This document shows positions 1-56,908 of a stretch of DNA of 64,000 nucleotides, one piece after another. The translations under genes and the position numbers were made by a program. How positions within the stretch are numbered: the first letter of the stretch is position 1; every line of letters starts with the position of its first letter. The notes under the pieces are model-generated. The model did no database searches, had not been told where the DNA came from, and worked only from the letters and a program-made list of their open reading frames with translations. The stretch is from an uncultured Chthonomonadaceae bacterium (lineage in GTDB: Bacteria > Armatimonadota > Chthonomonadetes > Chthonomonadales > CAJBBX01). The stretch is from the NCBI GenBank assembly GCA_964519955.1, contig CAZFLM010000013.1:33238-97237 (forward strand). Direction: 5' to 3'.

Positions 1-206
1 CGGCGTCGGACATCCCACTGAGCAACGACACCACCGTCTCTCGGAAGCACGCCTCGCTGCAGCCGGGCGACGGCGGCTGGTCGGTCACCGACCTGGGTTC
101 GTCCAACGGTGTGTTCGTGAACGGCGTCAAGATCCAGGGCTCGCAGCCGCTGCGCCCCGGCGACGAGGTGCAGATCGGCAACACTCGATTCCGGTTCGAG
201 GTATAG
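1..206 (+). CDS. FHA domain protein, C-terminal fragment (gene starts upstream of window)
   Basis: Frame ending at TAG 204-206 reads ...VSRKHASLQPGDGGWSVTDLGSSNGVFVNGVKIQGSQPLRPGDEVQIGNTRFRFEV, the C-terminal half of an FHA fold. The frame is open to the window edge. Confidence 0.8.
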   Translation, partial: ASDIPLSNDTTVSRKHASLQPGDGGWSVTDLGSSNGVFVNGVKIQGSQPLRPGDEVQIGNTRFRFEV

Positions 207-209
207 GCC

Positions 210-1703
210 GTGAGATCGCGCATACTGCTAGGCCTGCTGTTCGGCGCCGCCGGTGGCTTCCTGGGGTACCTGCTTCAGGAGGTGTCGGTCCCGCACGACC
301 CCGTGCTGGACCAGACGCGCTCGCAGATGATGACCATCGGCCTGATGGTGGGCGGGCTCATCGGCATGGCGATCGGTGCGGTCGAGGGCGTTGCGGTCGG
401 GTCGCCACGCAAGCTGGCACAGGGCATGGTGCTCGGCGGCATCATCGGCGCCATCGGCGGCCTGTTCGGCATCTACCTCGGCTCGGCCGTGTATGCCATC
501 GCCCTCTTCGGCAAGGACCCGCGGTACATGGAGCAGAGCGGCAACATGCTCGACTTCGTGCACCGCGTCCTCGCCCGGGCGCTGGGCTGGACCTTCCTCG
601 GCGCTCTGCCTGGAGTGGCCGCCGGGGCCGCGACTCTCTCGCCCAAGCGCGCCACGCACGGGCTCATCGGCGGGCTCATCGGCGGGTTCCTGGGAGGCCT
701 GGTGTTCGACCTGGTGGCCAACCTGATCGCTAAGCCGGTAGCCGGGGTCTCGTCTGGGATGATCAATGGGCCGCGCGTCGTTGAAATCGGCGGCCCGGGC
801 CGCGCCATCGGCTTCACGATGATCGGAGCGCTGACGGGGCTGTTCATCGGCCTCGTCGAGGAGCTGCTGAAGCAGGGCTGGGTGCGCGTACTCGCCGGGC
901 GCAACGAGGGCAAGGACTACATCCTCTCCAAGGCGCTTACCGTCATCGGGCGCGACGAGCGGGCCGACGTGCCCGTCTACGGCGACCCGATGCTGCAGCC
1001 CCAGCACGCGGCAATCCGCGTCGAGGGCGGGCGCCACGTGCTGCTGGACGGCGGAGCGCCGCCGACGGCCGTGGTGAACGGACAGCTCACGCAGAACGGC
1101 CGTCACCTCCTGCGCGACGGCGACATGATCCAGCTCGGCCAGGTACGCCTGCTCTTCCGCGAGAAGGCCACCGCGAGCAAGATCGGGCGCCCCGCCACCG
1201 ACGTGGCGCCCGCTCCTGCCGGCGGCCTCTCCGCGATGCCATCGCACCTGTGCCCCTATTGCGGCGCGCAGAAGGATGCCCAGGGCAACTGCCTCTGCAG
1301 CGTGCCGGGAGCAGGAGCGGCCGGACCTGCCGCCGGACAGTGGACCCCGCCGGCGCCCGGCGCACCCATCAGCGTGATGCTGCCGGGCAGCACCTACGGA
1401 GCGCCAGCCGCCGCCATGGGCACCCAGTTGGTCGCGCTGGACGGGCCGTACGCCGGGCAGGTGTTCCTGCTCAAGCCGCAAGGCACCACCATCGGCCGCG
1501 ACCCGGCCCGCGATATCGCGCTGGCCGCCGACACCACGATCTCCCGCCGCCATGCCAGAATTGCCGAGGAAGGCGGACGCCACGTGGTGTACGATGAAGG
1601 GTCATCGAACGGAACCTTCGTGAACGGCGTCCGGCTCACGATGCAGCCGCTTGCCGTCGGAGATGTGGTACAGCTCGGGTCGAGTTCCTTCCGATATGAG
1701 TAG
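210..1703 (+). CDS. Membrane protein with Gly-zipper-like TM segments, two FHA domains and a Cys-cluster linker
   Basis: 497-aa ORF with a GTG start 4 nt after the preceding stop. The N-terminal ~230 aa hold repeated GxxxG-rich hydrophobic segments (GLLFGAAGGFLGYLL, GLMVGGLIGMAIGAVEG, GGIIGAIGGLFGIYLG, GLIGGLIGGFLGGLVF). These are followed by FHA 1 (VIGRDERADVPV..HAAIRVEGGRHVLLD), CPYCGAQKDAQGNCLC, and FHA 2 (TIGRD..SRRHARI..GSSNGTFVNG). Confidence 0.8.
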   Translation: MRSRILLGLLFGAAGGFLGYLLQEVSVPHDPVLDQTRSQMMTIGLMVGGLIGMAIGAVEGVAVGSPRKLAQGMVLGGIIGAIGGLFGIYLGSAVYAIALFGKDPRYMEQSGNMLDFVHRVLARALGWTFLGALPGVAAGAATLSPKRATHGLIGGLIGGFLGGLVFDLVANLIAKPVAGVSSGMINGPRVVEIGGPGRAIGFTMIGALTGLFIGLVEELLKQGWVRVLAGRNEGKDYILSKALTVIGRDERADVPVYGDPMLQPQHAAIRVEGGRHVLLDGGAPPTAVVNGQLTQNGRHLLRDGDMIQLGQVRLLFREKATASKIGRPATDVAPAPAGGLSAMPSHLCPYCGAQKDAQGNCLCSVPGAGAAGPAAGQWTPPAPGAPISVMLPGSTYGAPAAAMGTQLVALDGPYAGQVFLLKPQGTTIGRDPARDIALAADTTISRRHARIAEEGGRHVVYDEGSSNGTFVNGVRLTMQPLAVGDVVQLGSSSFRYE

Positions 1704-1887
1704 GGACGCTGCCCGTTGCGTCCCCTGACGCTGCTTGCTGCGTCCCAGTCCTCCGATAGACAGGGCCCGCCTCGCCGCCGGCCGCGTACCTATAGCACTG
1801 GTCCATCCATTCATAACCGAGGGCCGCGCACGCCACCAGACCGCACATCATCCGGCGGCGGCCCTCGATCTGCCAAGGAGCCTTTCT

Positions 1888-2268
1888 GTGCTGAGCGAGA
1901 GAACCCAACCTAACTACTCCCTGGGCGAGCCCGATCCCGCCGTGACGGCCCTCGCACGCAAAGCCGTGCCGCCGGACCAACTCGGGACCAGGCTCACGGG
2001 GATCGCGGGCCTCTACTGCGGCCACGTGTTCCCGCTGCCGGGAGAGGTGAACATGATCGGGCGAGACACGGTCTGCTCGGTCTCCCTCCACAACGACAAG
2101 ACTGCGTCCCGCATCCATGCCCGCATCGTGCTCGAGGATGCCGGCCACGTGCTCTACGATCAGGGATCGGCCAACGGGACGTTCGTCAACGGCGCCCTGG
2201 TGCGGACATGCTTGCTCGCGCCGGGCGACACGCTGCAGTGCGGCAGCACCCGCCTTCGCTACGAGTAG
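1888..2268 (+). CDS. Small single-FHA-domain protein
   Basis: This is the 3' part of ORF 1735..2268. AAGGAG at 1875-1880 lies 7 nt before the in-frame GTG at 1888. The translation MIGRDTVCSVSL..SRIHARIVLEDAGHVLYDQGSANGTFVNG matches FHA. The start is uncertain and could be as far upstream as 1735. Confidence 0.7.
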   Translation: MLSERTQPNYSLGEPDPAVTALARKAVPPDQLGTRLTGIAGLYCGHVFPLPGEVNMIGRDTVCSVSLHNDKTASRIHARIVLEDAGHVLYDQGSANGTFVNGALVRTCLLAPGDTLQCGSTRLRYE

Positions 2269-2295
2269 GACCACAATCCGGTAGGAGACAGGCAT

Positions 2296-3678
2296 ATGGA
2301 GGATCGGACCCAGCAGATCGGCCAACAGCCCATGCCGCCCGCGGGCGCCGGGGCCACACAGCAGATGAACCGGACGGTGATCGGCGGCCCGAACCTCGGA
2401 CAGACCGCGATGGGCGCGCCCGACCTGGCCCGCACGACCATGGGCGCTCCCATGCGCGCGCTCAGCCTGGAGGCGCTGCCGGGCAGCCGGCTCGCCTTCG
2501 CGCCGGAGCGCGGCCGCGAGCACCTCCTGCTCCAGGTCAAGGCGGACACCTCCGCCATCGGCCGGCGCATGCCGCTCAACGTCTGCCTCGTCATCGACCG
2601 CTCCGGGTCGATGGAGGGCGAGCCACTGGAGTACGTGAAGCGGGCCTGCGCCTACGTCGTCGACCTCCTCGAAGCCACCGACGTCCTCTCCATCGTCACG
2701 TTCGAGGAGCAGGTCGACGTCCTGATGCCCGCCCGCCGCGTGGTGAACAAGGCGCTCATCAAGGAGCATATCAACCGCATCCAGGCCGGCAACACGACGA
2801 ACCTCTACGACGGCATGCTCTCAGGCTGCATGCAGGTGGCCTCGCTGAACGCGCCCGGCTATCTGAACCGCGTGCTGCTGCTGACCGACGGCGAGCCGAC
2901 TTCAGGCATCAAGGACTTCGCGTCCATCGTCGGGCAGGTGCAGGAGCAGCGCAACCGGGGCGTTTCCATCACGGCGCTCGGGTTCGGCGCGGAGTACAAC
3001 GAGGAGCTGATGGCCGGCATCGCCCGGCGCGGCGGCGGCAACTACTACTACATCGCCCAGCCGATGCTCATCCCGGAGGTCTTCCGCAAGGAACTCGAGA
3101 CGCTGATGACCATCACGGCCAAGAACGTGCGCGTGCGCATCAACCTGCCGCGCGGCGTGCAGTGCCGCTACGTCTACGGCGTGCCGCAGCCCAAGATCGC
3201 CGCACGCACGGTCGAGTTCGAGCTGGCCGACATCGAGCGCGGCAAGGTCGTCAGCAACCTGAGCGAGCTGGAGTTCGACCGCCACGTGCCCGGCACCTAC
3301 CGGGTCGCCAAGGTGGACGTGACGTACGACGACGCCGTATCCGGCCGCACCGAGGTGCTGACCGCCGATGCCGTCATCGAGTTCGCCACCGATCGCGCGG
3401 CGGTCGAGGCCTCGAAGAACCCGACGGTGCAGAGCGAGCTGGAAGTTCACCTGGCATCGCGCAACCTCGAGAAGACGATGATGGGCATGCGCACCCAGCA
3501 ACTCACCGCGATGGGCGCCATGCAGGAGCTTCAGCGCACCCGCACCGTGCTGCAGCAGGCCGGCCGCGCGGAACAGGCCCGCGAGGTCACCCTGGCCATG
3601 GAGCAGCTCCAGCAAGGCGGCCAGGTCGAGAAGACCCTCATCGGCACGATCTACAACCTGGACAAGGGCAAGAAGTAG
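2296..3678 (+). CDS. von Willebrand factor type A (vWA) domain protein with intact MIDAS
   Basis: 460-aa ORF with AGGAGA upstream of the ATG. MIDAS-like residues are present: VIDRSGSM, GNTTNLYDG, LLLTDGEPTSG. The N-terminus is low-complexity and Thr/Gln-rich. The C-terminal tail is helical and Gln-rich. Confidence 0.85.
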   Translation: MEDRTQQIGQQPMPPAGAGATQQMNRTVIGGPNLGQTAMGAPDLARTTMGAPMRALSLEALPGSRLAFAPERGREHLLLQVKADTSAIGRRMPLNVCLVIDRSGSMEGEPLEYVKRACAYVVDLLEATDVLSIVTFEEQVDVLMPARRVVNKALIKEHINRIQAGNTTNLYDGMLSGCMQVASLNAPGYLNRVLLLTDGEPTSGIKDFASIVGQVQEQRNRGVSITALGFGAEYNEELMAGIARRGGGNYYYIAQPMLIPEVFRKELETLMTITAKNVRVRINLPRGVQCRYVYGVPQPKIAARTVEFELADIERGKVVSNLSELEFDRHVPGTYRVAKVDVTYDDAVSGRTEVLTADAVIEFATDRAAVEASKNPTVQSELEVHLASRNLEKTMMGMRTQQLTAMGAMQELQRTRTVLQQAGRAEQAREVTLAMEQLQQGGQVEKTLIGTIYNLDKGKK

Positions 3679-3776
3679 CCCGGTGTAGGCCGGTCTGGGA
3701 CCCGGTCAGACGAGGCCATGTCCCGACCTCGGATACCTGCTCACTCGAACGCGCCGGCTCTGGGAGGATTGGGCAG

Positions 3777-4640
3777 ATGTGCACGCAGGTTCGCTTGGCG
3801 GCTCTCGTCGTATCCGTGTGCATGGCTATGGGCGTGGCGCACGCGGCGGCGCCGCCCCCCGACGGGTCCTTCGCCTACAGCAAGTTCGCCAAGACGACGG
3901 GGCTCAAGATCGTGGGTAACGTTGTGGTCGTTCGCGACGTGCTCCGACTGACTCCTGACGTAGAGTGGCGGTCCGGCGCGGTCTGGTATGCGACCAGGGT
4001 GCCGGTCGCCGCGGGGTTCCGAACCACCTTCACGTTCCGGATCACGGCGGCGGACGACTCGTCTGCGGACGGTCTGGCGTTCGTCGTCCAGAACTCGGCG
4101 AGCGATGCCCTCGGCGGACAGGGAGGCAACATCGGGTACGGACAGTGCATCGAGTTGCCCAATCCGGGCGGTATCCCGAACAGCCTGGCGATCGAGTTCG
4201 ATACGTACCCGAACTCGTCCGTCAACGGCCTGTTCACGGTCGACGACCCGAACGACAACCACATCAGCGTCCACACGCGCGGGGCCGAAGCCAACGGCAG
4301 CGACGAGTTCTACTCGCTCGGGTCGGCGCCGTCGGTCGCGGACCTGAAGGATGGCAACGTGCATACGGCGACGATCACGTACACGCCGGGCACGTTGACG
4401 GTCCTGCTGGACGGCGCCAAGCTCGTCGTGCCATACCGATTCGCGGCGGGCGGCAAGTACGCGAACGGCTCGGACGCGCCGGGGCTCGTGCTCGAGGGAG
4501 GGACCGCGTGGGTCGGCATCACTTCGAGCACCGGGATCAGCCACTCGAACCATGACATCCTGAGCTGGTCGTTCGGCCCGGCTCAGGCGCCAGTCGCGCC
4601 GGGCGGTCCCAGACGACCGTCTGGCCGCAATGCCAACTAG
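3777..4640 (+). CDS. Secreted L-type (legume-like) lectin domain protein
   Basis: Only the last 287 codons of the 810-aa ORF 2208..4640 look genuine. GGGAGG precedes the ATG at 3777. A signal peptide is present (LAALVVSVCMAMGVAHAAA). The body reads RLTPDVEWRSGAVWY..FRTTFTFRI..ADGLAFVVQN..GGNIGYG..NSLAIEFDTYPN..DPNDNHISVH..WVGITSSTG, matching the L-type lectin pattern. Confidence 0.7.
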   Translation: MCTQVRLAALVVSVCMAMGVAHAAAPPPDGSFAYSKFAKTTGLKIVGNVVVVRDVLRLTPDVEWRSGAVWYATRVPVAAGFRTTFTFRITAADDSSADGLAFVVQNSASDALGGQGGNIGYGQCIELPNPGGIPNSLAIEFDTYPNSSVNGLFTVDDPNDNHISVHTRGAEANGSDEFYSLGSAPSVADLKDGNVHTATITYTPGTLTVLLDGAKLVVPYRFAAGGKYANGSDAPGLVLEGGTAWVGITSSTGISHSNHDILSWSFGPAQAPVAPGGPRRPSGRNAN

Positions 4641-4646
4641 TGGTGC

Positions 4647-4737
4647 CCAGCTCTCTAGCCTGGATGATGCACAAGTGCCGTGGTGGGATGGGCCTCCGTG
4701 CCCGTCCAGTGCCACTCATGAATGGCCAGCTCTCTAG
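4647..4737. repeat. Palindromic REP/MITE-like element, copy 1, flanked by 12-bp direct repeat CCAGCTCTCTAG
   Basis: CCAGCTCTCTAG occurs at 4647-4658 and again at 4726-4737, bracketing 67 bp that contain the core GGGATGGGCCTCCGTGCCCGTCC. The same core and flanks recur at 46505-46585 and 53968-54048, and the core alone recurs at 42025-42056. Confidence 0.65.
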
Positions 4738-4847
4738 CGGCGTGAGGGGCTCCAGGGACACGCGTCGTCCGAGGGCGCCTCGTCAACAGGTTGAACCTAT
4801 CGCAGATGATCCACCGGCAGGGCGCTCACTGCCTCGGGGGAGGATGA

Positions 4848-5840
4848 ATGACCACGGAATCGACACAGGCGCTGCCCACTGGCGGACAGATGATCCCGGC
4901 GCCGCAGCCCGCCGCGCGGCCGGATGCCACCCAGATGGGGACATCCGTACCGTGCCCCGTCTGCCGGACCGCGAACACGGGCCTGGAAACCTACTGCATG
5001 GAGTGCGGCTTCCTGCTGGCGTCCACGCCGGGCGAAGCTGCTGCGTCGCAGGAGACGCCCTCGCCCGAGCTGATCGAGACCGGCTCCGGCAGGCGGTTCG
5101 CGCTGAAGCCAGGCGCCAACATGGTGGGACGCGAGAACTGCGACGTGCTGCTGATGGACCCGACTGTCTCGCGGCGACATGCCCGCATCGACGTGGGGCC
5201 CGGCGGCGTCTCGGTGACGGACCTCGGCAGCTCCAACGGGACGCAGGTGGACGCGAAGCGCCTGGAGGCCCAGCAGCCCGCCGCAGCCGTCGAGAACGCG
5301 GCGCTGAAGTTCGGCAACACGTCGTTCACGATCGTCGGCATCACGGTGACAGCGAAGGGGTTCCTGCCCAGCGCGGCTCCCGCGCCGCCCGCAGGCGAGC
5401 CGGAGAAGCCGAAGGCCGCTCTGCCTGCAGCGCCGTCGGCCCAGCCCGGCGCCGCGGCGCCGCCTCCGCCCCCGCCGACCGCCGACGCTGCGGTGGCCTG
5501 CCTGAAGCCCACGGGCCCCGGCGGCCAGGAGATCCGCATTCCGTCCGGCCAGATCACGGTTGGCAGGCGCGCGGGCAACAGTGTGGTGCTCACGGGCGAC
5601 CCGTACGTATCCGGCCAGCACGCCGAGATCCTCGCCGATGCCACCGGCTGCTACCTGACCGACGTGGGAAGCACGAACGGCAGCGTGGTGAATGGTGAGC
5701 GGCTGGAGCCGGGCCGCAAGCAGCTCCTGCTCGACGGCGACGAGGTGAAACTCGGGCAGACGTCGTTCGTATTCGAGACACTCGAAGGGCCGCCGACCGA
5801 ATCGGCGGGTGGACCCATCCGGATGGGCGGTGGCCAATGA
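4848..5840 (+). CDS. Zinc-ribbon plus dual-FHA protein
   Basis: 330-aa ORF with GGGGGAGG upstream. It has CPVCRTANTGLETYCMECG (a Cys4 ribbon), FHA 1 (MVGRENCDVLL..SRRHARI..GSSNGTQVD), a Pro/Ala-rich linker, and FHA 2 (ITVGRRAGNSVVL..SGQHAEI..GSTNGSVVNG). Confidence 0.8.
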   Translation: MTTESTQALPTGGQMIPAPQPAARPDATQMGTSVPCPVCRTANTGLETYCMECGFLLASTPGEAAASQETPSPELIETGSGRRFALKPGANMVGRENCDVLLMDPTVSRRHARIDVGPGGVSVTDLGSSNGTQVDAKRLEAQQPAAAVENAALKFGNTSFTIVGITVTAKGFLPSAAPAPPAGEPEKPKAALPAAPSAQPGAAAPPPPPPTADAAVACLKPTGPGGQEIRIPSGQITVGRRAGNSVVLTGDPYVSGQHAEILADATGCYLTDVGSTNGSVVNGERLEPGRKQLLLDGDEVKLGQTSFVFETLEGPPTESAGGPIRMGGGQ

Positions 5841-6733
5841 GCGACGAAGCGCTGGTCGAGGCTGTCGAGGTGTCCGAGCCGCCCGCGGAGGACGAGCGGG
5901 AGATCACCGCCAAGTTCTCGCGCGACGACCTGGTGCGCGGCTGGCGGGAGCGGCAGGAGCGCAAGCCGCGCGTCGTGCCCATCGTCAAGTTCGCCGCGAA
6001 GACGGACCTCGGGCGCGTCCGCGAGAACAACGAGGACAAGTTCGACTACTACGAGCCGGAGGATCCGACGCTGCTGGCCGCTCGCGGGTGCCTCTACGCG
6101 GTGGCGGACGGCATGGGCGGGCACGCGGCTGGGCAGATCGCCAGCGAGTTGGCGCTGAAGACCGCCATCTCTGCGTATTACGATGGTGCGAACGAGAGCA
6201 TCGCCCACGCGCTGCTCGAAGCCATCCAGTGCGCCAACGACACGGTGTTCGCGGTTGCCCACATGGTGCCGGACCGCAGCGGCATGGGCACGACGCTCAC
6301 GGTGGCCGTGCTGGCGGAGGACCGCGTCTATGTCGGCCAGGTGGGCGACAGCCGGGCGTATCTCATCCGCGGCGACGAGGTCCGCCAGGTGACCCAGGAC
6401 CACTCGTGGGTAGCCGAGCAGGTGCGCATGGGCGGCCTCACCGAGGAGGACGCCGAGGTCCACCCGTGGCGCAACGTCATCACGCGGTCCATCGGCAACC
6501 AGGACACGGTGGAAGCCGACGTCTTCGTCGAGGAAGCGCAGACGGGCGACATCTGGGTATTGTGTTCAGACGGGCTTACCGGCCACGTGAAGGCCGACGA
6601 GATCCGCGCAATCGCATCCGTGCACGCACCGTCGGAGGCATGCCGGCAGCTCATCGAGTTGGCCGGAGCCCGCGGCGGGCGTGACAACATTACTGTGGCG
6701 GTGATCGCCATTCGGGGGTTTGACGGTGACTGA
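5837..6733 (+). CDS. PP2C-family Ser/Thr protein phosphatase
   Basis: 298-aa ORF. Its ATG overlaps the preceding stop (ATGA at 5837-5840). Motifs present: RENNEDKF, AVADGMGGHAAG, GMGTTL, VGDSRAYL, CSDGLT, GGRDNITV. Confidence 0.9.
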   Translation: MSDEALVEAVEVSEPPAEDEREITAKFSRDDLVRGWRERQERKPRVVPIVKFAAKTDLGRVRENNEDKFDYYEPEDPTLLAARGCLYAVADGMGGHAAGQIASELALKTAISAYYDGANESIAHALLEAIQCANDTVFAVAHMVPDRSGMGTTLTVAVLAEDRVYVGQVGDSRAYLIRGDEVRQVTQDHSWVAEQVRMGGLTEEDAEVHPWRNVITRSIGNQDTVEADVFVEEAQTGDIWVLCSDGLTGHVKADEIRAIASVHAPSEACRQLIELAGARGGRDNITVAVIAIRGFDGD

Positions 6734-7385
6734 CGAGGAACGGCAGCAGCGCGGACGGATCGTCTCGCGGTGGCTGCGGCATCATCCGGAGGAGGCCGGC
6801 CTGGAGCTGTCGCCCGCGGGTTGGGTTGACATCGCGCGGGTGGTGGCCGCCCTGGAGGAGCGAGAGCTGCCCACGAGCCGCGAGGATCTGGTCCGCCTCG
6901 CAAGGCTGGACGACAAGCCGCGCTTCGAGGTGGAGGACGACAAGATCCGCGCGCGTTACGGCCACTCGCTGCAACTGGGGCAGGAGCCGAACGCGGGAAT
7001 CCCGCCGCCGGCGCTTTACCACGGAACCTCGCGGCGACTTCTGCCGATGATACTAGCAAAAGGCCTCGGCCCGCGCGGCAAGACGTCCTACGTGCAGCTC
7101 TCGCCGAAGCCTGCCGCCGCGCGCGAGGCTGGGATGAAGCACGACAGCGAGCCCATCGTGCTGGAGATCGCCGCCCAGCGCGCCCACGAGGCGGGAGTGA
7201 AGTTCTACCCGCGCGGCAAGGGCGTCTGGCAGAGCGGCCCGGTGCCGCCGGAGTTCCTGGCCATCCGCGAGATGGTGAGCCCGGACCCAGAAGAGCGGGC
7301 TGCCAGATCGGGACCGGCCTCCGGCCAGCGGCGGCGCGTGCCACCCAAGGGTGGCTTCCTGAAGAAGACCGACCGAGACACATAG
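6720..7385 (+). CDS. kptA: RNA 2'-phosphotransferase, Tpt1/KptA family, with basic C-terminal extension
   Basis: 221-aa ORF with a TTG start that overlaps the PP2C gene by 14 nt. It aligns by eye with E. coli KptA: SRWLRHHPEE, GWVDI, KPRFEVEDDKIRARYGHS, LYHGTS, SYVQLS, PIVLEI, GVWQSGPVPPEFL. About 40 extra Arg/Pro/Lys-rich residues follow at the C-terminus. Confidence 0.85.
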   Translation: MTVTDEERQQRGRIVSRWLRHHPEEAGLELSPAGWVDIARVVAALEERELPTSREDLVRLARLDDKPRFEVEDDKIRARYGHSLQLGQEPNAGIPPPALYHGTSRRLLPMILAKGLGPRGKTSYVQLSPKPAAAREAGMKHDSEPIVLEIAAQRAHEAGVKFYPRGKGVWQSGPVPPEFLAIREMVSPDPEERAARSGPASGQRRRVPPKGGFLKKTDRDT

Positions 7386-7445
7386 GTGCGCCGCCCCATC
7401 GGTTGACCGATCGCCCGCGATAGGGCGCAAAGCCGTCGACAAGCG

Positions 7446-9533
7446 ATGAACTCGCATACTCACTACGAGATACTCGGACTGCGCGAAACCGCGACGGCCG
7501 AGGACATCAAGAAGCGCTACCACGACCTGGCGCGCCGGTTCCATCCGGACGTCGCGGGCACGGGCAACGCGACGCGTTTTCGCGCCATCCAGGATGCGTA
7601 CGCCGTCCTGTCGGACCCGGCTGCGCGCCAATCCTACGATGCAACGCTCCCAAAGGCTGGTCGTCCTGCGGCCGGCCCATCGAGCGCAACCGCCACCGCC
7701 GCGCCTCCAACGCACCCCGGTGCATCGCCGCATGAGCCGCAGGTCGACGACGTCATCGCCGGCAAGTACCGCATCCTGCGCGAGATCGCCCGCTCCAACG
7801 ATGTCGTCTACGAGGCCGTGGACCAGACGATGGGACGCCGCCTCGCGGTGAAGGAGTTGGTCCTTCCCGGCAACCTGACGGGGACAGCGCGGCGCGAGCG
7901 GATCGAACGGTTCAACCGGGAAGCCCGGGCCGCGGGCCGTCTCTCGCATCCGAACATCGTCACCGTGTACGACTATGGCGAGGACAACGGCCGGTACTTC
8001 ATCGCGATGGAGTACCTGGAGGGCGGCACGCTGCGCGACCGGATACAGGGCGGCACGAGCCTCCCGCCGGACGAGGCCATCGGCATCGCGTGCCAGGTGC
8101 TGGGCGCCCTCACCCACGCCCACGCGCACAAAGTCGTCCACCGCGACGTGAAGCCGGACAACATCCACATCCAGCCGGACGGCCAGGTGAAGCTGACGGA
8201 CTTCGGCATCGCGCGCCTCACGGAGGAAGCCTCGCTCACCGGCGACGGCCAGGTGTTCGGCACGCCGAGCTACATGTCGCCCGAGCAGATCGAGGGGCGT
8301 GGCATCGACCTGCGCTCCGACCTCTTTTCGCTGGGCGTCGTGCTCTACGAGATGCTGAGCGGGCACAAGCCGTTCACCGGCGACAGCGTCGTCAGCATCA
8401 CGTACAACATCATGCACGCCGAGCCGCCGCCGATGACCGGCATGTCGTTCGCCGTCGAGCAGGTCGTGATGCGCTCCCTGTGCAAGGACCCGCACGGCCG
8501 GTTCCAGTCCGCCGAGGAGATGCGCCGGGCGCTGCGGACGGCCGACACCACGCCCGCCCTGTTCCTCACCAGCTCGATGAACACGGGCGGCACGCTCTAC
8601 GGGCAGACGGCCGCCGTGCCGTACACCATGGGGACGCCGGGCACGATCACGGGCGGCTACGGCATGCCGAGTTCGCCGCCCGTCGGCGGGCCATTCGGCG
8701 CTCCGCAGCACCCCGCCCCGGCGCCGCAGGCCGGACCGTTCGCGACGTGGGGACAGCCGCCGGCGCCAGCCCCGCCGCCGCCACCGGGCTTCGGCAGGCA
8801 GCGCGCCCCTCGGCGCGCCGTCGGGCCCGGCACGCGCGCGTTCTTCTCCGTGCTGATGGCCAGCCTGGTCATCTCCGGCGTGGTCATCGGCTTCATGCTG
8901 CTGTTCGTGCGCTCCTACAGCCAGTACCAGACGCAGGCGGGCCAGCGCAAGCTGATGGCCACGCTGAACAGCGGCTCCGAGCGGTACAACGTCGGCGATC
9001 TCGACGGCGCCGCCTCGGCCTTCGACACCGTGCTCCGGCAGGATCGCGACGGAACCGCCGGGCGCATCGCGCGAACCAACCTCGCCATCACACTCAACAA
9101 GATGGGCAAGCTGGCCTACGAGCGGGGCGACCTGCGCCGCGCCGAGGAGTACTTCGGCAGGGCTCAGGACCTGTACGCCAATCCGAACGACGTGATGGGC
9201 GACAAGGACCAGGAGGCCCTGGATACCGCGCGCCAGAACCTGCAAGCCACCTACAACCGCCTGGGCGTGCGAGCGGACGCGTCGGGGGGCGGCGACAGCG
9301 GGCCACCGGGTCTTTCGGGTGGCGTGTCGTCGGGCGATACGGACGCCAGCCTCCGGCAGCGCATGGGCCAGGCGCAGTCCTCCCTACAGGCCGGCAACCA
9401 GGCCTATCAGCAGGGTAACATGGAGCAGGCCCGCAAGCAATGGCTCGATGCGGTCAATGCTGCTCCCGGATCTCCGGCCGCGCTCGAAGCCCAGCAGAAC
9501 CTCGACAGAACGTCCAACTCGCTCGAAGAGTAG
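7446..9533 (+). CDS. J-domain / Hanks-type Ser/Thr kinase / TM / TPR fusion protein
   Basis: 695-aa ORF. The N-terminal J domain reads YEILGLRETATAEDIKKRYHDLARRFHPDV..AYAVLSDPAARQSYD. The kinase core shows AVKEL, HRDVKPDNIHI, DFGIAR and GTPSYMSPEQ. A Pro-rich linker follows, then one TM segment (FFSVLMASLVISGVVIGFMLLFV) and a TPR-like C-terminal region. Confidence 0.85.
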   Translation: MNSHTHYEILGLRETATAEDIKKRYHDLARRFHPDVAGTGNATRFRAIQDAYAVLSDPAARQSYDATLPKAGRPAAGPSSATATAAPPTHPGASPHEPQVDDVIAGKYRILREIARSNDVVYEAVDQTMGRRLAVKELVLPGNLTGTARRERIERFNREARAAGRLSHPNIVTVYDYGEDNGRYFIAMEYLEGGTLRDRIQGGTSLPPDEAIGIACQVLGALTHAHAHKVVHRDVKPDNIHIQPDGQVKLTDFGIARLTEEASLTGDGQVFGTPSYMSPEQIEGRGIDLRSDLFSLGVVLYEMLSGHKPFTGDSVVSITYNIMHAEPPPMTGMSFAVEQVVMRSLCKDPHGRFQSAEEMRRALRTADTTPALFLTSSMNTGGTLYGQTAAVPYTMGTPGTITGGYGMPSSPPVGGPFGAPQHPAPAPQAGPFATWGQPPAPAPPPPPGFGRQRAPRRAVGPGTRAFFSVLMASLVISGVVIGFMLLFVRSYSQYQTQAGQRKLMATLNSGSERYNVGDLDGAASAFDTVLRQDRDGTAGRIARTNLAITLNKMGKLAYERGDLRRAEEYFGRAQDLYANPNDVMGDKDQEALDTARQNLQATYNRLGVRADASGGGDSGPPGLSGGVSSGDTDASLRQRMGQAQSSLQAGNQAYQQGNMEQARKQWLDAVNAAPGSPAALEAQQNLDRTSNSLEE

Positions 9534-9578
9534 GCACGCCGCTTCCACTCAGAAGTCCGCCAGGAAGGAGCCGCACCC

Positions 9579-10712
9579 GTGCGTCGACGTCCCTCCCCCA
9601 AGCCGCGCCGCGCCACCGCGCCCGCCGAGATCCCCGAGGTCCAGATCCTTCTCAAGCAGGGCGACGTCGCCGCCGCCAACTCGCTCCTGCGGATAGCGAC
9701 CGGCGACGACCGCGCGGCCGCGAAGGCAGCCCGCGCCGCCCTCTACACGCTCAGACAAGCGGGGATCGAGCCGGAGCCGGTGGAGGCGCCCGTGGAACCC
9801 GCGGAACCCGCGCCCGCGGACACCGAGCACCGCAGCTACCGTGCCTGGGCGTGCCATCCGAGCCCGCACGGCGACATCGTGGTCATCTTCGGCACACCCG
9901 TCTCTCGGGGCAGGCGCATCCAGCTCTGGACGGCGGAGGCAACCCTGTTCGGCGGGCTGGCCGATCTGACGCACGCATCGCTGACGGCGGAGGAGTTCGA
10001 TCGCCATCTGGCCGAGATGGCGCTGGACGACGAGGCGCCCCTCTACGAGACGACGGTGGAGCACGCGAAGGCGCTCGTCGTCGAGGCGAACGAGGTGGCG
10101 CGGAAGCGTGGGTCGCTGACCCCGACGGGCTACTACGAGTGGCGCGGCGACGTGGGCGAAGGCGGCTCCGGCGCGCGGCCCCGCATCTACGACCTGCTGG
10201 ATGCCGACGCCGTGGTGGCCGACCTGGGCCTGCCCCGCGATCCGGAGAGCGCGCTGGACAACAAGCGGCGGGTCACCTGGATGCTCAATCCGGACACCGT
10301 GGGACCGTGGCTCAAGCCGGTCGCGGAGGCCGTGCACAGCCCGGTGGCGATCGACGACTCCCAGCGCAAGAGGATGGCCGAGCGTGTGTTCGAGGAGGCC
10401 GCCGACGCGATCTTCGATGCAGATGCCCGCCGAGCCTGGAGGCGTATGCTCGAGGAGAGCGCCGCCGCCCTGGCCGTTCTGGGCGAGGACGAAGCCGCCC
10501 GGCAGGGCCTCTACCACGCGCTGCAGTTCGACGACCGGCCGGCGCGCGACATCCCGATGGCCATGCACCTCGTCCGCCGCACCGTGGGCGTGGTGATGAC
10601 CTATCTGCTCCGTGAGGAACGCAGGGCCCGCGGCGAGACCGTCGAGGCTGACGATGAGGCGCCACCCGAGGACGACCAGCCGGAGCCGCCGAGCCTGATC
10701 GAGCGGGCGTAG
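9579..10712 (+). CDS. Hypothetical protein (acidic, helical), last gene of the FHA/kinase array
   Basis: 377-aa ORF. GGAAGGAG lies 7 nt upstream of the GTG at 9579, which is 45 nt after the kinase stop. I recognised no domain. Composition is more protein-like than the antisense ORF 9549..10937. Confidence 0.55.
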   Translation: MRRRPSPKPRRATAPAEIPEVQILLKQGDVAAANSLLRIATGDDRAAAKAARAALYTLRQAGIEPEPVEAPVEPAEPAPADTEHRSYRAWACHPSPHGDIVVIFGTPVSRGRRIQLWTAEATLFGGLADLTHASLTAEEFDRHLAEMALDDEAPLYETTVEHAKALVVEANEVARKRGSLTPTGYYEWRGDVGEGGSGARPRIYDLLDADAVVADLGLPRDPESALDNKRRVTWMLNPDTVGPWLKPVAEAVHSPVAIDDSQRKRMAERVFEEAADAIFDADARRAWRRMLEESAAALAVLGEDEAARQGLYHALQFDDRPARDIPMAMHLVRRTVGVVMTYLLREERRARGETVEADDEAPPEDDQPEPPSLIERA

Positions 10713-10829: not shown

Positions 10830-12005
10830 GTGCTGGTTGGTGTTCCGGCGGAAACGTATCCTGGCGAGAAGCGGGCCGCGTTGGTTCCCGCATCCTTGGC
10901 GGCGCTGAAGAAGGCCAAGATCGACGTGGCGGTGCAAGCCGGGCTCGGTCTGGCCGCGGGCTACACGGACGCTGCCTACGCCGAAGCAGGCGCCGAGGTC
11001 GTGGCGGACCGCGCCGAGATCCTGCGCCGCTCCGACGTACTGCTGCAGGTGCGCGCGCTCGGAGCGGACGCCGACGGGCTCGCCGCCGACCTGCCGAACC
11101 TGCGCGCCGGGCGAGTCGTCATCGCCACGATGGACCCGCTCTCCGAGCCGCAGCCCGCCACCAAGGCGGCCGAGGCCGGGGTGACCGCATTCGCGCTGGA
11201 GCTGCTTCCCCGCATCACCCGCGCGCAGTCGATGGACGTGCTCTCCAGCCAGGCCAACCTCGCCGGCTACAAGGCCGTGATCATCGCGGCCGACTCGCTA
11301 GCCAAGCTCCTCCCGATGATGATGACCGCCGCCGGCACCATCGCGCCCTCGAAGGTCTTCGTCATCGGCGCGGGCGTCGCGGGGCTCCAGGCCATCGCCA
11401 CGGCCCGGCGCCTCGGCGCGGTGGTCAGCGCCTACGACGTGCGCCCCGCGGTGAAGGAGCAGGTCGAGAGCCTGGGCGGCCGGTTCGTCGAGCTGGAGAT
11501 CGAGGCCGGCGACTCGCAGACCTCGGGCGGCTACGCGAAGGCCATGGGCGAGGAGTTCTACCGCAAACAGGCCGAGCTGATGACGCGGGTGGTCGCCGAG
11601 AACGACGTGGTCATCACCACCGCCGCCATCCCGGGCCAGAAGGCGCCCACGCTCGTGACCAAGGCGATGGTCGAGGCGATGCAGCCCGGCGCCATCGTGG
11701 TGGACATCGCGGCGGAGCGCGGCGGCAACTGCGAGTTGACCGTGCCGGGCGAGACCATCGACCACAACGGCGTGACGATCGTGGGTCCGCTGAACCTGCC
11801 CTCCACGGTCCCGTTCCACGCCAGCCAGCTCTACGCCAAGAACATCGTGACGTTCCTGCTGCACCTGGTGAAGGACGGCGCGCTGAACATCGACACGGCC
11901 GACGAGATCACCCGCGACACGCTGGTGACGCAGGGCGGCCAGGTCGTGAACGCCCGGGTGCGCGAGAAGCTGGGCCTGGAGCCGCTGCCCGCACCGGGGG
12001 CCTAG
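10830..12005 (+). CDS. pntAA: NAD(P) transhydrogenase subunit alpha part 1
   Basis: 391-aa ORF with GGAGGG 7 nt upstream of the GTG. It has the alanine-dehydrogenase-like fold motifs: VIGAGVAGLQAIATARRLGA, TTAAIPGQKAP. Confidence 0.9.
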   Translation: MLVGVPAETYPGEKRAALVPASLAALKKAKIDVAVQAGLGLAAGYTDAAYAEAGAEVVADRAEILRRSDVLLQVRALGADADGLAADLPNLRAGRVVIATMDPLSEPQPATKAAEAGVTAFALELLPRITRAQSMDVLSSQANLAGYKAVIIAADSLAKLLPMMMTAAGTIAPSKVFVIGAGVAGLQAIATARRLGAVVSAYDVRPAVKEQVESLGGRFVELEIEAGDSQTSGGYAKAMGEEFYRKQAELMTRVVAENDVVITTAAIPGQKAPTLVTKAMVEAMQPGAIVVDIAAERGGNCELTVPGETIDHNGVTIVGPLNLPSTVPFHASQLYAKNIVTFLLHLVKDGALNIDTADEITRDTLVTQGGQVVNARVREKLGLEPLPAPGA

Positions 12006-12128: not shown

Positions 12129-12422
12129 ATGGATTCCCTGATCGCTAGTCTCTACGTGTTCGTGTTGGCAACCTTCCTCGGCTTCGAGGTCATCCGCCGC
12201 GTGTCGCCGCTGCTGCACACGCCGCTGATGTCGCTCACGAACGCGATCTCCGCCATCAGCCTCGTCGGGTCCATCGTGATCCTCGGCGAGCAGAAGAGCA
12301 CGCTGACGATGGTCCTCGGCGCGCTGGCGGTCACCGCCTCCACCATCAACGTGGTCAGCGGCTTCCTCATCACCGACCGCATGCTCAAGATGTTCAAGAA
12401 GCGCGACCCGAAGAAGTCGTAG
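12129..12422 (+). CDS. pntAB: NAD(P) transhydrogenase subunit alpha part 2 (membrane)
   Basis: 97-aa hydrophobic ORF (LHTPLMSLTNAISAISLVGSI) lying between pntAA and pntB. Confidence 0.9.
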   Translation: MDSLIASLYVFVLATFLGFEVIRRVSPLLHTPLMSLTNAISAISLVGSIVILGEQKSTLTMVLGALAVTASTINVVSGFLITDRMLKMFKKRDPKKS

Positions 12423-12443: not shown

Positions 12444-13838
12444 GTGCAACAGACCTTCACCCAGATAGCCTATCTGATCGCCTCCGCTCTCTTCGTGCTC
12501 GCCCTGAAGTGGCTGAGCGCGCCGGCCACCGCTCGCAAGGGCGTATGGGCTGGCGAGATCGGCATGGTCCTCGCGATCGTCGGCACGCTCCTGCTGCCGG
12601 AGATCGTCGCGTTCCACTGGATCATCGTCACGATCCTCATCGGCACGGCCATCGGCATCCCCATCGCCATCCTGATGCCGATGACGGCCGTCCCGCAGCG
12701 GACCGCGCTGTCGCACTCGTTCGGCGGCCTGGCCGTGGGCCTCGTCGGCGCGGCGGAGTACTACCTCTGGCTCTCCGAGGGCGCCGCCTCGATCTCCCAC
12801 TTCAAGATGGGCGTCGTCTCGTTCGAGGTCATCCTGGGCTTCCTCACGTTCACCGGCTCGCTGATGGCGTTCGGCAAGCTGCAGGAGCTGCTGCCCACCC
12901 GGCCGATCACGTACAAGGGCCAGAACTTCGTCAACTTCGTGCTGTTCGGGATCGCCCTGGCGGCCGGCGTGTGGCTGACCATCGATCCCTCGCAGTCGCT
13001 GCTCTTCCCACTGCTGATCGCGCTCTCGCTGACATTCGGCGTGCTGCTGATTATCCCGATCGGCGGGGCCGACATGCCGACGGTCATCTCCCTGCTGAAC
13101 TCCTACGCCGGGCTCTCCGCCTGCGCGATGGGCTTCGTGCTGGAGAACAAGCTGCTGATCATCGCCGGCGCCCTGGACGGCTCGTCCGGGTTCATTCTCT
13201 CGGTCATCATGTGCAAGGCGATGAACCGGTCCTTCACCAACGTGCTGTTCGGCGCGTTCGGCCAGGTCCAGCAGAAGGCGATCGGCGCAAAGGAGGAGCG
13301 GACGGTCCGCAGCGCGAGCCCGGAGGAAGCCGCCGCGATCCTGGAGACCTCGCAGACCGTCGTGGTGGTGCCGGGCTACGGCATGGCGGTCGCCCAGGCC
13401 CAGCACAAGGTGCGCGAGCTGTACGACGCCCTCACGAAGCGCGGCGTGGACGTGAAGTTCGGCATCCACCCGGTCGCGGGACGCATGCCGGGCCACATGA
13501 ACGTGCTGCTGGCCGAGGCCGACATCCCCTACGACCACCTGCTCGAGATGGACGAGATCAACCCCGAGCTGCCGCACACCGACACGGTGCTCATCATCGG
13601 CGCCAACGACGTGACCAACCCGGCGGCGCGCACGGACCAGAGCAGCCCGATCTACGGCATGCCGATCATCGACGTCGACAAGGCGCGCACGGTGATGGTG
13701 ATCAAGCGGAGCATGAGTTCCGGCTTCGCGGGCATCGACAACGAGCTGTACTACATGGACCGCACCATGATGCTCTTCGGCGACGCCAAGGCGTTCGTCG
13801 GCGAGATCGTCAAGGAACTGGCGGCCAACAAGGACTGA
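12444..13838 (+). CDS. pntB: NAD(P) transhydrogenase subunit beta
   Basis: 464-aa ORF with a polytopic N-terminal half. The C-terminal dIII motifs are VVVPGYGMAVAQAQ, HPVAGRMPGHMNVLLAEA and GANDVTNPAA. Confidence 0.9.
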   Translation: MQQTFTQIAYLIASALFVLALKWLSAPATARKGVWAGEIGMVLAIVGTLLLPEIVAFHWIIVTILIGTAIGIPIAILMPMTAVPQRTALSHSFGGLAVGLVGAAEYYLWLSEGAASISHFKMGVVSFEVILGFLTFTGSLMAFGKLQELLPTRPITYKGQNFVNFVLFGIALAAGVWLTIDPSQSLLFPLLIALSLTFGVLLIIPIGGADMPTVISLLNSYAGLSACAMGFVLENKLLIIAGALDGSSGFILSVIMCKAMNRSFTNVLFGAFGQVQQKAIGAKEERTVRSASPEEAAAILETSQTVVVVPGYGMAVAQAQHKVRELYDALTKRGVDVKFGIHPVAGRMPGHMNVLLAEADIPYDHLLEMDEINPELPHTDTVLIIGANDVTNPAARTDQSSPIYGMPIIDVDKARTVMVIKRSMSSGFAGIDNELYYMDRTMMLFGDAKAFVGEIVKELAANKD

Positions 13839-14363: not shown

Positions 14364-14371
14364 GATTGACA

Positions 14372-14400
14372 CGGGCCGGGAGCGCGAAGCTCCCGGCCCG
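14372..14400 (+). terminator. 12-bp perfect GC hairpin after small ORF (no U-tract)
   Basis: CGGGCCGGGAGC (14372-14383) pairs with GCTCCCGGCCCG (14389-14400) across a 5-nt loop. Confidence 0.45.
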
Positions 14401-14441
14401 CGGCGTCTCTGGCGGGGCGACCCGATGCGCTACAATGGTGC

Positions 14442-15083
14442 GTGCCTCTTGGCAGACGAGAGGCCCGGAGGCGCCGCTTGCTGCAGTCACTGGACAACGC
14501 TCTCTTCGCCGTGCTGAACCAGGGCATGGGCAACCCCTTCCTCGATGCGGTCATGCCCGTCATCACCGGGCTGCACCACACCAAGTGGTTCCTCTGGGTC
14601 GTCGGGCTGTTCGCGGTGGCCGTGCTGGCCCGCGGATCGCGACGGGCGCGGGTGTGGGTGCTCTGCGCCATCGTCGCCGTCGGGCTGAGCGACCTGTTCT
14701 GCGCCCGCGTGGTGAAGCGCATCGTGCCGCGCGACCGCCCCTGCAGCATCGTCGCCGCCACGGGCGCCATGACCTACCCCGACACGCGGCTCGTCGGCAA
14801 CTGCCCGGGCTCCAAGTCGTTCCCCTCGAACCACGCGTCCAACATGATGGCGCTCGGCCTGGTCTGCTGCTGGTTCACGCGGGGCCGCAAGCGCTGGGCG
14901 TGGATGCTGCTGCCGCTGGTGGTGGGCTACAGCCGCGTGTACCTCGGCTACCACTACCCGCTGGACATGGTCGGCGGCTGGGCGGTGGGCGCGCTGGTGG
15001 GCGCCGCGGCCGTGCTGGCGCTGCGGGGCCTGGTGCGCGAGGATAAGCCAGGAACCGACCCGCCGGCCGAGGCGGCATCGTAG
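14442..15083 (+). CDS. PAP2-family phosphatase (undecaprenyl-diphosphatase-like membrane protein)
   Basis: 213-aa ORF carrying the PAP2 signature KRIVPRDRP ... PSNHASN ... SRVYLGYHYPLDMVGG. The start is uncertain: TACAAT lies only 5 nt upstream of the GTG at 14442. Confidence 0.8.
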   Translation: MPLGRREARRRRLLQSLDNALFAVLNQGMGNPFLDAVMPVITGLHHTKWFLWVVGLFAVAVLARGSRRARVWVLCAIVAVGLSDLFCARVVKRIVPRDRPCSIVAATGAMTYPDTRLVGNCPGSKSFPSNHASNMMALGLVCCWFTRGRKRWAWMLLPLVVGYSRVYLGYHYPLDMVGGWAVGALVGAAAVLALRGLVREDKPGTDPPAEAAS

Positions 15084-53971: not shown

Positions 53972-54048
53972 CCTGGATCATGCACGAGTGCAGTGGTGGG
54001 ATGGGCCTCCGTGCCCGTCCGGTGCGACTCATGGATAGGTCAGGCTAA
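53968..54048. repeat. 81-bp CTAG-bounded palindromic REP/MITE-like element, copy 3
   Basis: CTAGCCTGGATCATGCACGAGTGCAGTGGTGGGATGGGCCTCCGTGCCCGTCCGGTGCGACTCATGGATAGGTCAGGCTAA. The left CTAG contains the TAG stop of the kinase gene (53969-53971). The right end contains the stop of the convergent gene (54045-54047). Confidence 0.75.
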
Positions 54049-56723: not shown

Positions 56724-56908
56724 CGTAAGCCTCCCGAGGTTCGTCCCTATCGGACAAGGAGAACGCGCCGGCGCCACCGAACGGCCCTGATGGGGCAAGC
56801 GTCGCCGCCCCCACGCTCGCCCGCGCACCGGCCATTCGATAGGCGGCTGATCAGCCTGGCCGGCGGCGGCACCTAGGGCTGGAGCATCGCGTCGTCTGGG
56901 GACAGGGA

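Follow-up and report, generated by a model that had tools for sequence, protein, structure and literature searches.

ArnA and ArnB form a motility-repression module in Sulfolobus acidocaldarius, with ArnC and ArnD as the kinases and PP2A as the phosphatase. ArnA is composed of a four-Cys Zn finger (C21/C24/C35/C38) and an FHA domain (PMC12852372). ArnB is phosphorylated by ArnC, the FHA domain of ArnA binds phosphothreonine in the C-terminal bundle of ArnB, and the Zn finger of ArnA also binds ArnB (PMC6509490, PMC12852372); the ArnA/ArnB complex is found in the PDB as 8S05 (PMC12852372). Among bacteria, the DRA0331-DRA0334 operon of Deinococcus radiodurans encodes a vWA protein, a transmembrane (TM) Ser/Thr kinase, an FHA protein, and an FHA-PP2C protein and is described as a push-pull phospho-module (bioRxiv 10.64898/2026.01.23.701218), and the TerY-P triad of a vWA protein, a PP2C phosphatase, and a Ser/Thr kinase has been predicted to be a phosphorylation-dependent switch (PMC10542128). 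Here, we analyzed a stretch of 64,000 nucleotides (the window; G+C content of 66-72%) from a Chthonomonadales bacterium of the phylum Armatimonadota, which carries a cluster of ten genes (g1-g10) at positions 1-10712. Our results suggest that the core of this cluster (g1, g2, g3, g4, g6, g7, and g9) is likely a phosphothreonine switch of the ArnA/ArnB type that is carried on the chromosome, inherited vertically, and present across Armatimonadota.

Genes were identified by open reading frame (ORF) calling guided by the G+C content of third codon positions (GC3), and domains were assigned with Pfam. The original prediction for this DNA had listed ten co-directional genes on the + strand; the ORF calls confirmed their coordinates, and Pfam confirmed all of the named domains. 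The idea of a phosphothreonine signaling module was likewise supported by the presence of FHA readers, a PP2C phosphatase, a Hanks-type kinase, and a vWA protein.

Predicted ArnB-like architecture of the vWA protein

The vWA protein is encoded by g4 (2296-3678, +; Pfam VWA, E 4e-20). Its MIDAS (metal ion-dependent adhesion site) had been described as intact, and in agreement with this, the DRSGS motif (residues 101-105, nt 2596-2610), T167/T168, and D198 were invariant in 26 orthologues. The best PDB match of g4 by sequence was 8S05_A, ArnB of Sulfolobus (phmmer, E 4.7e-14), and this match (residues 94-444) spanned the vWA domain, the beta-sandwich, and the helical tail. An AlphaFold2 model built from the 26 orthologues (predicted local distance difference test score, pLDDT, of 79) showed a disordered N-terminal tail (residues 1-50), a beta-sandwich that the vWA domain interrupts, and four C-terminal helices (376-455). 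In a Foldseek search with this model, the top matches were 8S05_A/B (E 6e-27, TM-score 0.70 over an alignment of 414 columns), 4FX5, and 5A8J, which is a paralogue of ArnB, with ITIH and Sec23/24 next. 8S05 is the best PDB match both by sequence and by fold, and g4 is a predicted cytoplasmic vWA protein with the three-domain architecture of ArnB.

The N-terminal tail of g4 is rich in Thr, and T5, T47, T394, T400, T415, and T447 were invariant in the orthologue alignment. The motif T-x-[MILV]-G was present in seven copies, compared with 0.74 expected (0/2000 shuffles), with six of the seven lying in either the C-terminal helices or the N-terminal tail. Phylum-wide, 76 of 77 orthologues had two or more C-terminal copies, and the number of copies in the N-terminal tail ranged from 0 to 6. 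These Thr residues and motifs in the two tails are candidate phosphorylation sites, in parallel with the repeated phospho-Thr peptides of the C-terminal bundle of ArnB.

Zn-ribbon and FHA proteins of the cluster

Six FHA domains in four proteins had been predicted, and both Pfam and a tblastn search of the window against itself supported this number: exactly six FHA copies were present in the 64-kb window, all of them inside the array. The signature GR...SxxH...S-x-NG was kept in five of the six domains, the exception being the first FHA domain of g2. The first gene, g1 (3-206, +; FHA, Pfam E 2e-17), encodes a C-terminal FHA fragment of a protein that is cut by the window edge, as the original prediction had noted for the array. 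Full-length orthologues of g1 are ~460 aa long, and one such copy is located at positions 5635-7011 of L087, the nearest related locus. They consist of a signal peptide, an extracytoplasmic beta-rich domain, one TM segment, a Zn ribbon of the form CxxC-x9-CxC (CPFC-x9-CAC in the full-length copy), and the FHA domain.

The second gene, g2 (210-1703, +), encodes a polytopic membrane protein with two FHA stretches (Pfam). Its five Gly-rich TM segments come first, after which FHA1, the CPYC-x9-CLC Zn ribbon, and FHA2, which is canonical, follow in this order. The phosphothreonine pocket of FHA1 is degenerate and lacks the canonical SxxH and S-x-NG binding residues. A Gly-zipper membrane protein had been proposed as an output of the array, and this turned out to be no gene of its own but the five-TM N-terminal half of g2, the anchor of an FHA reader; the Pfam Gly-zipper match of g2 was below threshold (E 0.009). 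The small stand-alone FHA protein g3 (1888-2268, +; Pfam E 3e-14) is 126 aa long, and its length is the same in public assemblies. The soluble protein g6 (4848-5840, +) carries two FHA stretches (Pfam) after a Zn ribbon, CPVC-x10-CMEC (aa 36-53, nt 4953-5006). Its CxxC-x10-CxxC pattern was kept in 55 orthologues, and the spacing equals that of C21/C24/C35/C38 in ArnA (PMC12852372). Judged by their sequences, g1, g2, and g6 are predicted ArnA-like Zn-ribbon and FHA readers, of which g1 and g2 are membrane-anchored, and g3 is an extra FHA-only protein.

Predicted kinase, phosphatase, and J-domain fusions

The PP2C Ser/Thr phosphatase g7 (5837-6733, +; Pfam) contains the metal-binding motifs NED, DGMGG, DGL, and GGRDN and scored 250 bits against the NCBIfam Stp1/IreP model (cutoff, 230), which makes it a predicted eraser of the Stp1 type. 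The kinase gene g9 (7446-9533, +) encodes a J domain with the HPD motif (Pfam DnaJ; aa 5-65, nt 7458-7640), a kinase domain (Pfam Pkinase; aa 120-357, nt 7803-8516), a single TM segment found by hydropathy scan (aa 469-487, nt 8850-8906), and a C-terminal TPR region (Pfam), which is probably extracytoplasmic. The J-domain/Hanks-kinase/TM/TPR protein of the original prediction was thus recovered, and g9 is a predicted receptor-type Hanks kinase that would act as the writer. The residues K133, HRD232, DFG252, and SPE278 are intact, the proteins nearest to the kinase domain are StkP, PknB, and PknA, and the score against the NCBIfam PknB_PASTA_kin model was 306 bits (cutoff, 450). The ATP-binding loop of StkP and PknB is GxGxxG. 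In g9, this Gly-rich loop is replaced by IARSNDVVY (window 7800-7830, aa 115-127; REIARSND(I/V)VYEA), which was essentially invariant in ~50 orthologues (L002-L089) phylum-wide.

The fusion of a J domain with the kinase is common only to the window and L087. At loci of Capsulimonadaceae and Armatimonadales (Armatimonas), a J domain was found at the N terminus of the g6 orthologue with its two FHA domains (2xFHA), replacing or preceding the Zn ribbon (L055:11388-12563; also L049, L051, L053, L056, L060, L065-L068, and L074). Because the J domain was fused in two independent contexts, we infer a functional link between Hsp70 recruitment and the module, which suggests that recruitment of DnaK/Hsp70 is tied to it.

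Conservation and synteny across Armatimonadota

More than 1,500 relatives of the g4 vWA protein were found. The best 120 of them were 59-100% identical to it (59-88% for the full-length ones, the window's own sequence excepted), and those with names belonged to Chthonomonadales. When one genome was scanned for each species, 80 loci were obtained from Chthonomonadales, Capsulimonadales, Armatimonadales, and Fimbriimonadales (48-76% identity). The identity of g4 orthologues was 60-88% in Chthonomonadales and 48-58% in the other three orders. Exact-sequence look-ups of g2, g4, and the KptA gene g8 returned nothing or only Logan contigs of at most 4.4 kb.

Synteny was analyzed by tblastn of all window proteins against the loci of the scan and loci added later, and counts were taken over loci with enough flanking sequence (informative loci). 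The order yjeF, FHA, TM-2xFHA, FHA, vWA formed a fixed syntenic block (84 related loci, at least four orders), after which genes for Zn-ribbon-2xFHA, PP2C, and kinase proteins were usually present. Upstream of the vWA gene, g2 was found in 55 of 71 informative loci and g1 in 53 of 69; downstream of it, g6 was found in 63 of 73, the PP2C gene g7 in 59 of 69, and the kinase gene g9, after PP2C, in 41 of 60. The accessory genes were much less frequent: 13 of 60 loci carried KptA and 10 of 54 carried g10 downstream of the vWA gene, and the lectin gene g5 was found anywhere in the locus in 0 of 73. Linkage in related genomes was thus usual for the syntenic core block and not for the lectin, KptA, and g10. 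In L087, whose vWA protein is 84% identical to g4, the order is yjeF (L087:3938-5566), FHA (458 aa), TM-2xFHA (508), FHA (126), vWA (460), 2xFHA (327), PP2C (298), KptA (215), DnaJ-kinase (683), pntAA, pntAB, and pntB, with neither the lectin nor g10.

The yjeF gene, encoding an NAD(P)HX epimerase/dehydratase, was located immediately upstream of g1 and co-directional with it in ~50 loci from Chthonomonadales to Fimbriimonadales; the upstream context of g1 in the window is inferred from these relatives. Because yjeF adjoins g1 in so many loci, the block has stayed at a single chromosomal site from an early point in the history of the phylum. This fixed position and the vWA orthologues of 48-88% identity fit a vertically inherited module of the housekeeping type rather than a mobile defense island. 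Two slots of the locus, between vWA and 2xFHA and between PP2C and the kinase, were variable, with contents that included a DNA methylase (L083), an M23 peptidase (L029), a YhgA-type transposase (L004), and a second PP2C (L024).

Several loci differed from this arrangement. In a metagenome-assembled genome (MAG) of Chthonomonas calidirosea (L009:9462-10955), the PP2C gene was followed by genes for an S11 DD-carboxypeptidase, a pseudouridine synthase, and an FecCD permease, with no KptA or kinase gene there; the cognate kinase of C. calidirosea must be encoded elsewhere. The Capsulimonadaceae locus L055 (8217-9912) had two PAP2 genes directly upstream of vWA and lacked g1-g3. A PAP2-family phosphatase gene was also present in the window (14370-15083), 3.6 kb downstream of the array, and the occurrence of PAP2 near the cluster may reflect loose neighborhood conservation or chance. 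The full vWA-2xFHA-PP2C-kinase arrangement was found in two MAGs labeled Actinomycetes/Actinomycetota (L038 and L046), for which mis-binning or mislabeling is more likely than real transfer.

Alternatively, the cluster could be the Armatimonadota counterpart of the actinobacterial FhaA-FhaB-PstP-PknA/B module for control of growth and the cell wall, with peptidoglycan or envelope synthesis as its output and the vWA protein only as a scaffold. The PP2C lies above the Stp1/IreP cutoff, the best NCBIfam match of the kinase was PknB/Stk1, and those of the FHA proteins were FhaB, OdhI, and GltG. Moreover, g1 and g2 are membrane-anchored FHA proteins like FhaB, g1 and g9 have extracytoplasmic domains, and envelope genes occur occasionally at these loci, as in the DD-carboxypeptidase after PP2C in C. 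calidirosea, the M23 peptidase in L029, and the nearby PAP2. However, these envelope neighbors are sporadic, and rodA, pbpA, and ftsW were absent in or beside the cluster at all examined loci (for rodA/pbpA, the window, L009, L055, L082, L083, and L087). The extracytoplasmic part of g9 is TPR, not PASTA, its score was below the PASTA kinase cutoff, and the most conserved protein of the block, the ArnB-like vWA protein, has no actinobacterial counterpart. We therefore consider this explanation rather unlikely. Type VI secretion system (T6SS) genes were absent from the 64-kb window and from up to 10 kb on either side in relatives, and T6SS TagH-type FHA scores (TIGR03354) were 19-65 bits, under the 120-bit cutoff. 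The original statement that neither rodA/pbpA nor T6SS partners accompany the array was thus extended to the flanks of relatives, where yjeF was found upstream of g1, and explanations based on T6SS or rodA/pbpA were rejected on the absence of these genes.

Proposed phosphothreonine switch

In the ArnA/ArnB-type switch that we propose, every step of which is drawn from sequence by analogy, g9 would sense an extracytoplasmic signal through its TPR ectodomain and would phosphorylate conserved Thr residues in the disordered N-terminal tail and the C-terminal helical bundle of g4. The Zn-ribbon and FHA readers would then dock on the phosphothreonines of g4, with g1 and g2 at the membrane and g6 in soluble form with two FHA domains, and g3 may dock there too. 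Docking would alter the makeup of the complex or its location at the membrane, as for ArnA with phosphorylated ArnB, and g7, the Stp1-type PP2C, would reset the switch. The MIDAS site of g4 would stay free for a downstream partner. The J domain, which recurs on g9 in this cluster and, in other orders, on the orthologue of g6, would recruit DnaK/Hsp70 to remodel the assembly. Our best guess for the output of the switch is an envelope or cell-surface process.

Several points weigh against this reading. The Thr motif of g4 was defined post hoc, and for this organism, each part of the mechanism is an analogy. The FHA domains are nearer in sequence to the bacterial GarA, OdhI, and FhaA than to ArnA, and 5A8I was absent among the 29 PDB matches of the FHA domains. 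Because the FHA sequences are not specifically ArnA-like, the resemblance to ArnA is one of architecture rather than of demonstrated orthology. The eraser is a PP2C and not the PP2A of the Arn network, and with the non-canonical loop of g9, the activity or nucleotide use of the kinase may be unusual. The kinase gene was not adjacent in nine loci that keep PP2C, including that of C. calidirosea. The Fimbriimonadales loci hold only yjeF-g1-g2-g3-vWA, and the writer and eraser are therefore not obligatorily linked to the hub. Finally, co-transcription of the genes is at most putative, given the gaps of 184, 98, and 207 nt and uninformative promoter and terminator scans.

If the ArnA/ArnB-type switch is correctly predicted, the logic of a Zn-finger-FHA reader acting on a multiply phosphorylated ArnB-type vWA hub would not be peculiar to Sulfolobales, and the block would be the most conserved Ser/Thr-signaling block of a poorly studied bacterial phylum. 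The bacterial version would add a PP2C, a receptor kinase of its own, and readers that are anchored in the membrane, and the independent J-domain fusions give a testable hint at a role for Hsp70 in such switches. The points of note are the phylum-wide conservation, the multiplied and membrane-anchored readers, and two unusual conserved features, namely J-domain fusions that recur and a kinase loop that is non-canonical. Since C. calidirosea is culturable and carries the core, these predictions are experimentally approachable.

Accessory genes of the cluster

A signal-peptide L-type lectin and a Tpt1/KptA enzyme had been named beside the PP2C in the original prediction, and all three were supported by Pfam, with a hydropathy scan for the signal peptide. 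The lectin gene g5 (3777-4640, +; Lectin_L-type_dom, E 1e-25; legume-like) has a GC3 of 0.87, which is native-like, and a compositionally foreign insert was ruled out on this basis. Its recent arrival is indicated not by composition but by the absence of the lectin from relatives, including L087 with its 84%-identical vWA protein. The product of g5 is a predicted secreted lectin, and the gene represents a lineage-specific insertion in the vWA|2xFHA slot, outside the conserved system.

The KptA gene g8 (6720-7385, +) encodes a divergent PTS_2-RNA (Tpt1/KptA) protein (Pfam E 3e-30; 106 bits, gathering cutoff 26). Its best PDB matches were Tpt1 enzymes, and it fell under all four NCBIfam equivalog cutoffs. 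The active site of Tpt1/KptA is a tetrad, Arg-His-Arg-Arg, that is invariant and essential (PMC6333775). In an alignment with CthTpt1 and 84 homologues, the first three residues were present in g8, and the fourth (Arg121 of CthTpt1) was not Arg: g8 has GKTSYVQLS in place of the canonical xRQYVHLS, so that the fourth position is, depending on the alignment, a Lys with a one-residue insertion or a Thr, and the His of VHLS is replaced by Gln. The fourth position is Leu or Lys in the KptA of L087, and the tetrad Arg was kept in 13 of 15 linked KptA homologues. Thus g8, an accessory gene, probably encodes an impaired or altered enzyme here. In a neighbor-joining tree, the cluster-linked KptAs formed one clade, with the window and L087 on a long branch, and although they shared 39-49% identity, they were always located between PP2C and the kinase. 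This history fits a single acquisition in one Chthonomonadales subclade. Among KptA homologues elsewhere, those at 43% and 39% identity had unrelated neighbors, and one at 44% was linked.

The 2'-phosphate that the protein-kinase-like ArkI writes on RNA is erased by KptA (PMC9095486). In the KptA-bearing subclade, KptA could have been wired into the switch, where it would have an RNA-directed output or, by comparison with that pair, would act on a phosphate that the neighboring non-canonical kinase makes; the former could be RNA 2'-phosphate removal or ADP-ribosylation of 5'-phosphate ends. This would agree with the monophyly of the linked KptAs and their constant position despite low identity, with the overlap of g8 and the PP2C gene here, and with the invariant non-canonical nucleotide loop of the cluster kinase. 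However, a kinase with the same loop was found phylum-wide without KptA, other genes separated KptA from PP2C in L004 (a transposase), L007, and L016, and the nearest unlinked homologues were as similar as the linked ones. In the window, the loss of Arg at the fourth tetrad position and of the His in VHLS on a long branch looks like relaxed or changed constraint, and we find it quite unlikely that KptA has such a role. A related idea is that KptA was recruited as a second, NAD-dependent eraser or output, paired with the IARSND-loop kinase in the manner of ArkI and KptA or attacking a non-RNA phosphate. This would couple Ser/Thr-kinase signaling directly to NAD-dependent phosphate removal or ADP-ribosylation, and we rate it as very unlikely.

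KptA belongs to the NAD/ADP-ribose enzyme world, which is often used in conflicts. The original prediction interpreted the whole ten-gene array as a phospho-gated phage or conflict surveillance-effector system rather than a housekeeping one, with KptA and the Gly-zipper protein as its outputs. The kinase g9 gave generic kinase matches in a PADLOC scan (e.g., PD-T4-6), the linked KptAs form one clade that stayed between PP2C and the kinase, and vWA-PP2C-kinase triads of the TerY-P type are tied to defense, with a TerY-P-like module being antiphage (PMC10542128). However, beyond these kinase matches, PADLOC gave only a weak PP2C match (PDC-M21C) and was blank for the vWA, FHA, KptA, lectin, and g10 proteins (its TerY-P models were not checked), and PHROGs matched KptA and gave weak vWA matches of unknown function; a defense system as the principal explanation was rejected on these results. 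The core is fixed beside yjeF across the phylum, neither patchy nor island-borne, its neighbors are metabolic, and no defense-island context was found. The tail of g9 is TM and TPR and not the Zn ribbon or OB fold of the TerY-P kinase. The outputs also do not hold, because the Gly-zipper region is part of the FHA protein g2, and KptA is confined to one subclade with a damaged catalytic tetrad here. In addition, the lectin was absent from all 73 informative loci, and unrelated genes (transposase, methylase, M23 peptidase) fill the same slots elsewhere. Taken together, the surveillance-effector interpretation is very unlikely.

The last gene, g10 (9579-10712, +), encodes a conserved hypothetical protein without a family and had no match in Pfam, NCBIfam, PADLOC, or PHROGs. 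An exhaustive search found 388 representative clusters of this family at E<=1e-3, compared with one relative in a word-based search. The family had no Pfam or PDB relative, except for N-terminal HEAT extensions in 3 of 40 members, and the AlphaFold2 model of g10 was unusable (pLDDT 57.5, from 2 sequences). The gene follows the kinase gene in some Chthonomonadales. Overall, g5, g8, and g10 are specific to particular lineages, entered the cluster at variable slots between its genes, and are not obligatory parts of the system. Exotic, tightly packed arrays can accordingly consist of a conserved core and recent passengers, in this case the lectin, KptA, and g10.

Gene spacing and surrounding genes

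The array had been described as having almost no spacing. This was overstated, as the intergenic gaps from g1 to g10 were 3, 184, 27, 98, 207, -4, -14, 60, and 45 nt, and only some of the junctions are tight. The gap at 206/210 is 3 nt and not 4 nt, the ATGA overlap of the g7 start with the g6 stop was confirmed, and the 14-nt overlap of g7 and g8 is obtained with a TTG start at 6720 but not with the GTG at 6726 chosen by public gene callers. Promoter and terminator consensus scans and Rfam gave nothing informative at the g1-g10 junctions; for this phylum, a sigma-70 consensus may be inapplicable.

Behind the array lies an operon for a split NAD(P) transhydrogenase, consisting of pntAA (10830-12005), pntAB (12129-12422), and pntB (12444-13838), which marks the downstream end of the cluster. 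With yjeF upstream, pntAB downstream, and the NAD-dependent KptA between them, there is an apparent NAD theme; a functional NAD link among these genes was set aside as probable coincidence, and apart from the window, L087 was the sole locus with adjacent pntAB. Elsewhere, the window carries genes of ordinary function, including those for pheA, PFK, a GH5 cellulase, a peptidase, and a hybrid histidine kinase, and no tRNA or Rfam match was found in the window. A second vWA-type gene (DUF58/VWA_2; 37994-39799, -) showed no tblastn similarity to g4 and is unrelated to it; DUF58/VWA_2 genes are usually paired with MoxR ATPases. A 1008-aa ORF at 54045-57071 (-) had good coding statistics and no Pfam match at E<=1e-5.

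Comparison with known systems

The core resembles the actinobacterial fhaA-fhaB-pstP-rodA-pbpA-pknA-pknB cluster and the Firmicute Stk1/Stp1 pair in having FHA proteins with membrane anchoring among them, an Stp1-type PP2C, and a PknB-like kinase, as well as in its vertical conservation of the housekeeping type. Unlike the actinobacterial cluster, it has no SEDS/PBP (penicillin-binding protein) genes and no PASTA domains, and it includes a vWA hub. For the cyanobacterial Zn-ribbon-FHA protein FraH, no usable literature on architecture was found, and this protein was not relied on.

As in the TerY-P triad, a vWA protein, a PP2C, and a Hanks kinase (g4, g7, and g9) are co-encoded. The kinase tail is, however, TM and TPR instead of a Zn ribbon/OB fold, FHA readers are abundant, and the genes occupy a fixed chromosomal site phylum-wide, whereas TerY-P genes are patchily distributed in ter, restriction, or defense islands. 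The closest bacterial precedent is DRA0331-DRA0334 of D. radiodurans, a likeness of gene composition. The order and number of genes in that operon differ from those of the array, its PP2C carries its own FHA domain, and it lacks TM-anchored multi-FHA proteins, a J domain, and KptA.

In mechanism and structure, the closest system to the predicted switch is ArnA/ArnB. The differences are several. The switch is bacterial and has three Zn-ribbon and FHA paralogues, two of them membrane-anchored, compared with one in Sulfolobus, together with the extra FHA-only protein. Its eraser is a PP2C (PPM family) encoded in the cluster, compared with PP2A (PPP family), and its kinase is a receptor-type enzyme that has a TPR ectodomain and, in this genome, also a J domain. 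The motif around Thr is T-x-[MI]-G, compared with IETTRR in ArnB, the FHA sequences lack specific similarity to ArnA, and there is no archaellum. Like ArnB, however, g4 is predicted to have a beta-sandwich into which the vWA domain is inserted, a C-terminal helical bundle rich in Thr, and an intact MIDAS; like ArnA, g6 combines a CxxC-x10-CxxC Zn ribbon with FHA and is encoded beside the vWA gene; and as in the Arn network, the predicted writer is a Hanks-type kinase.

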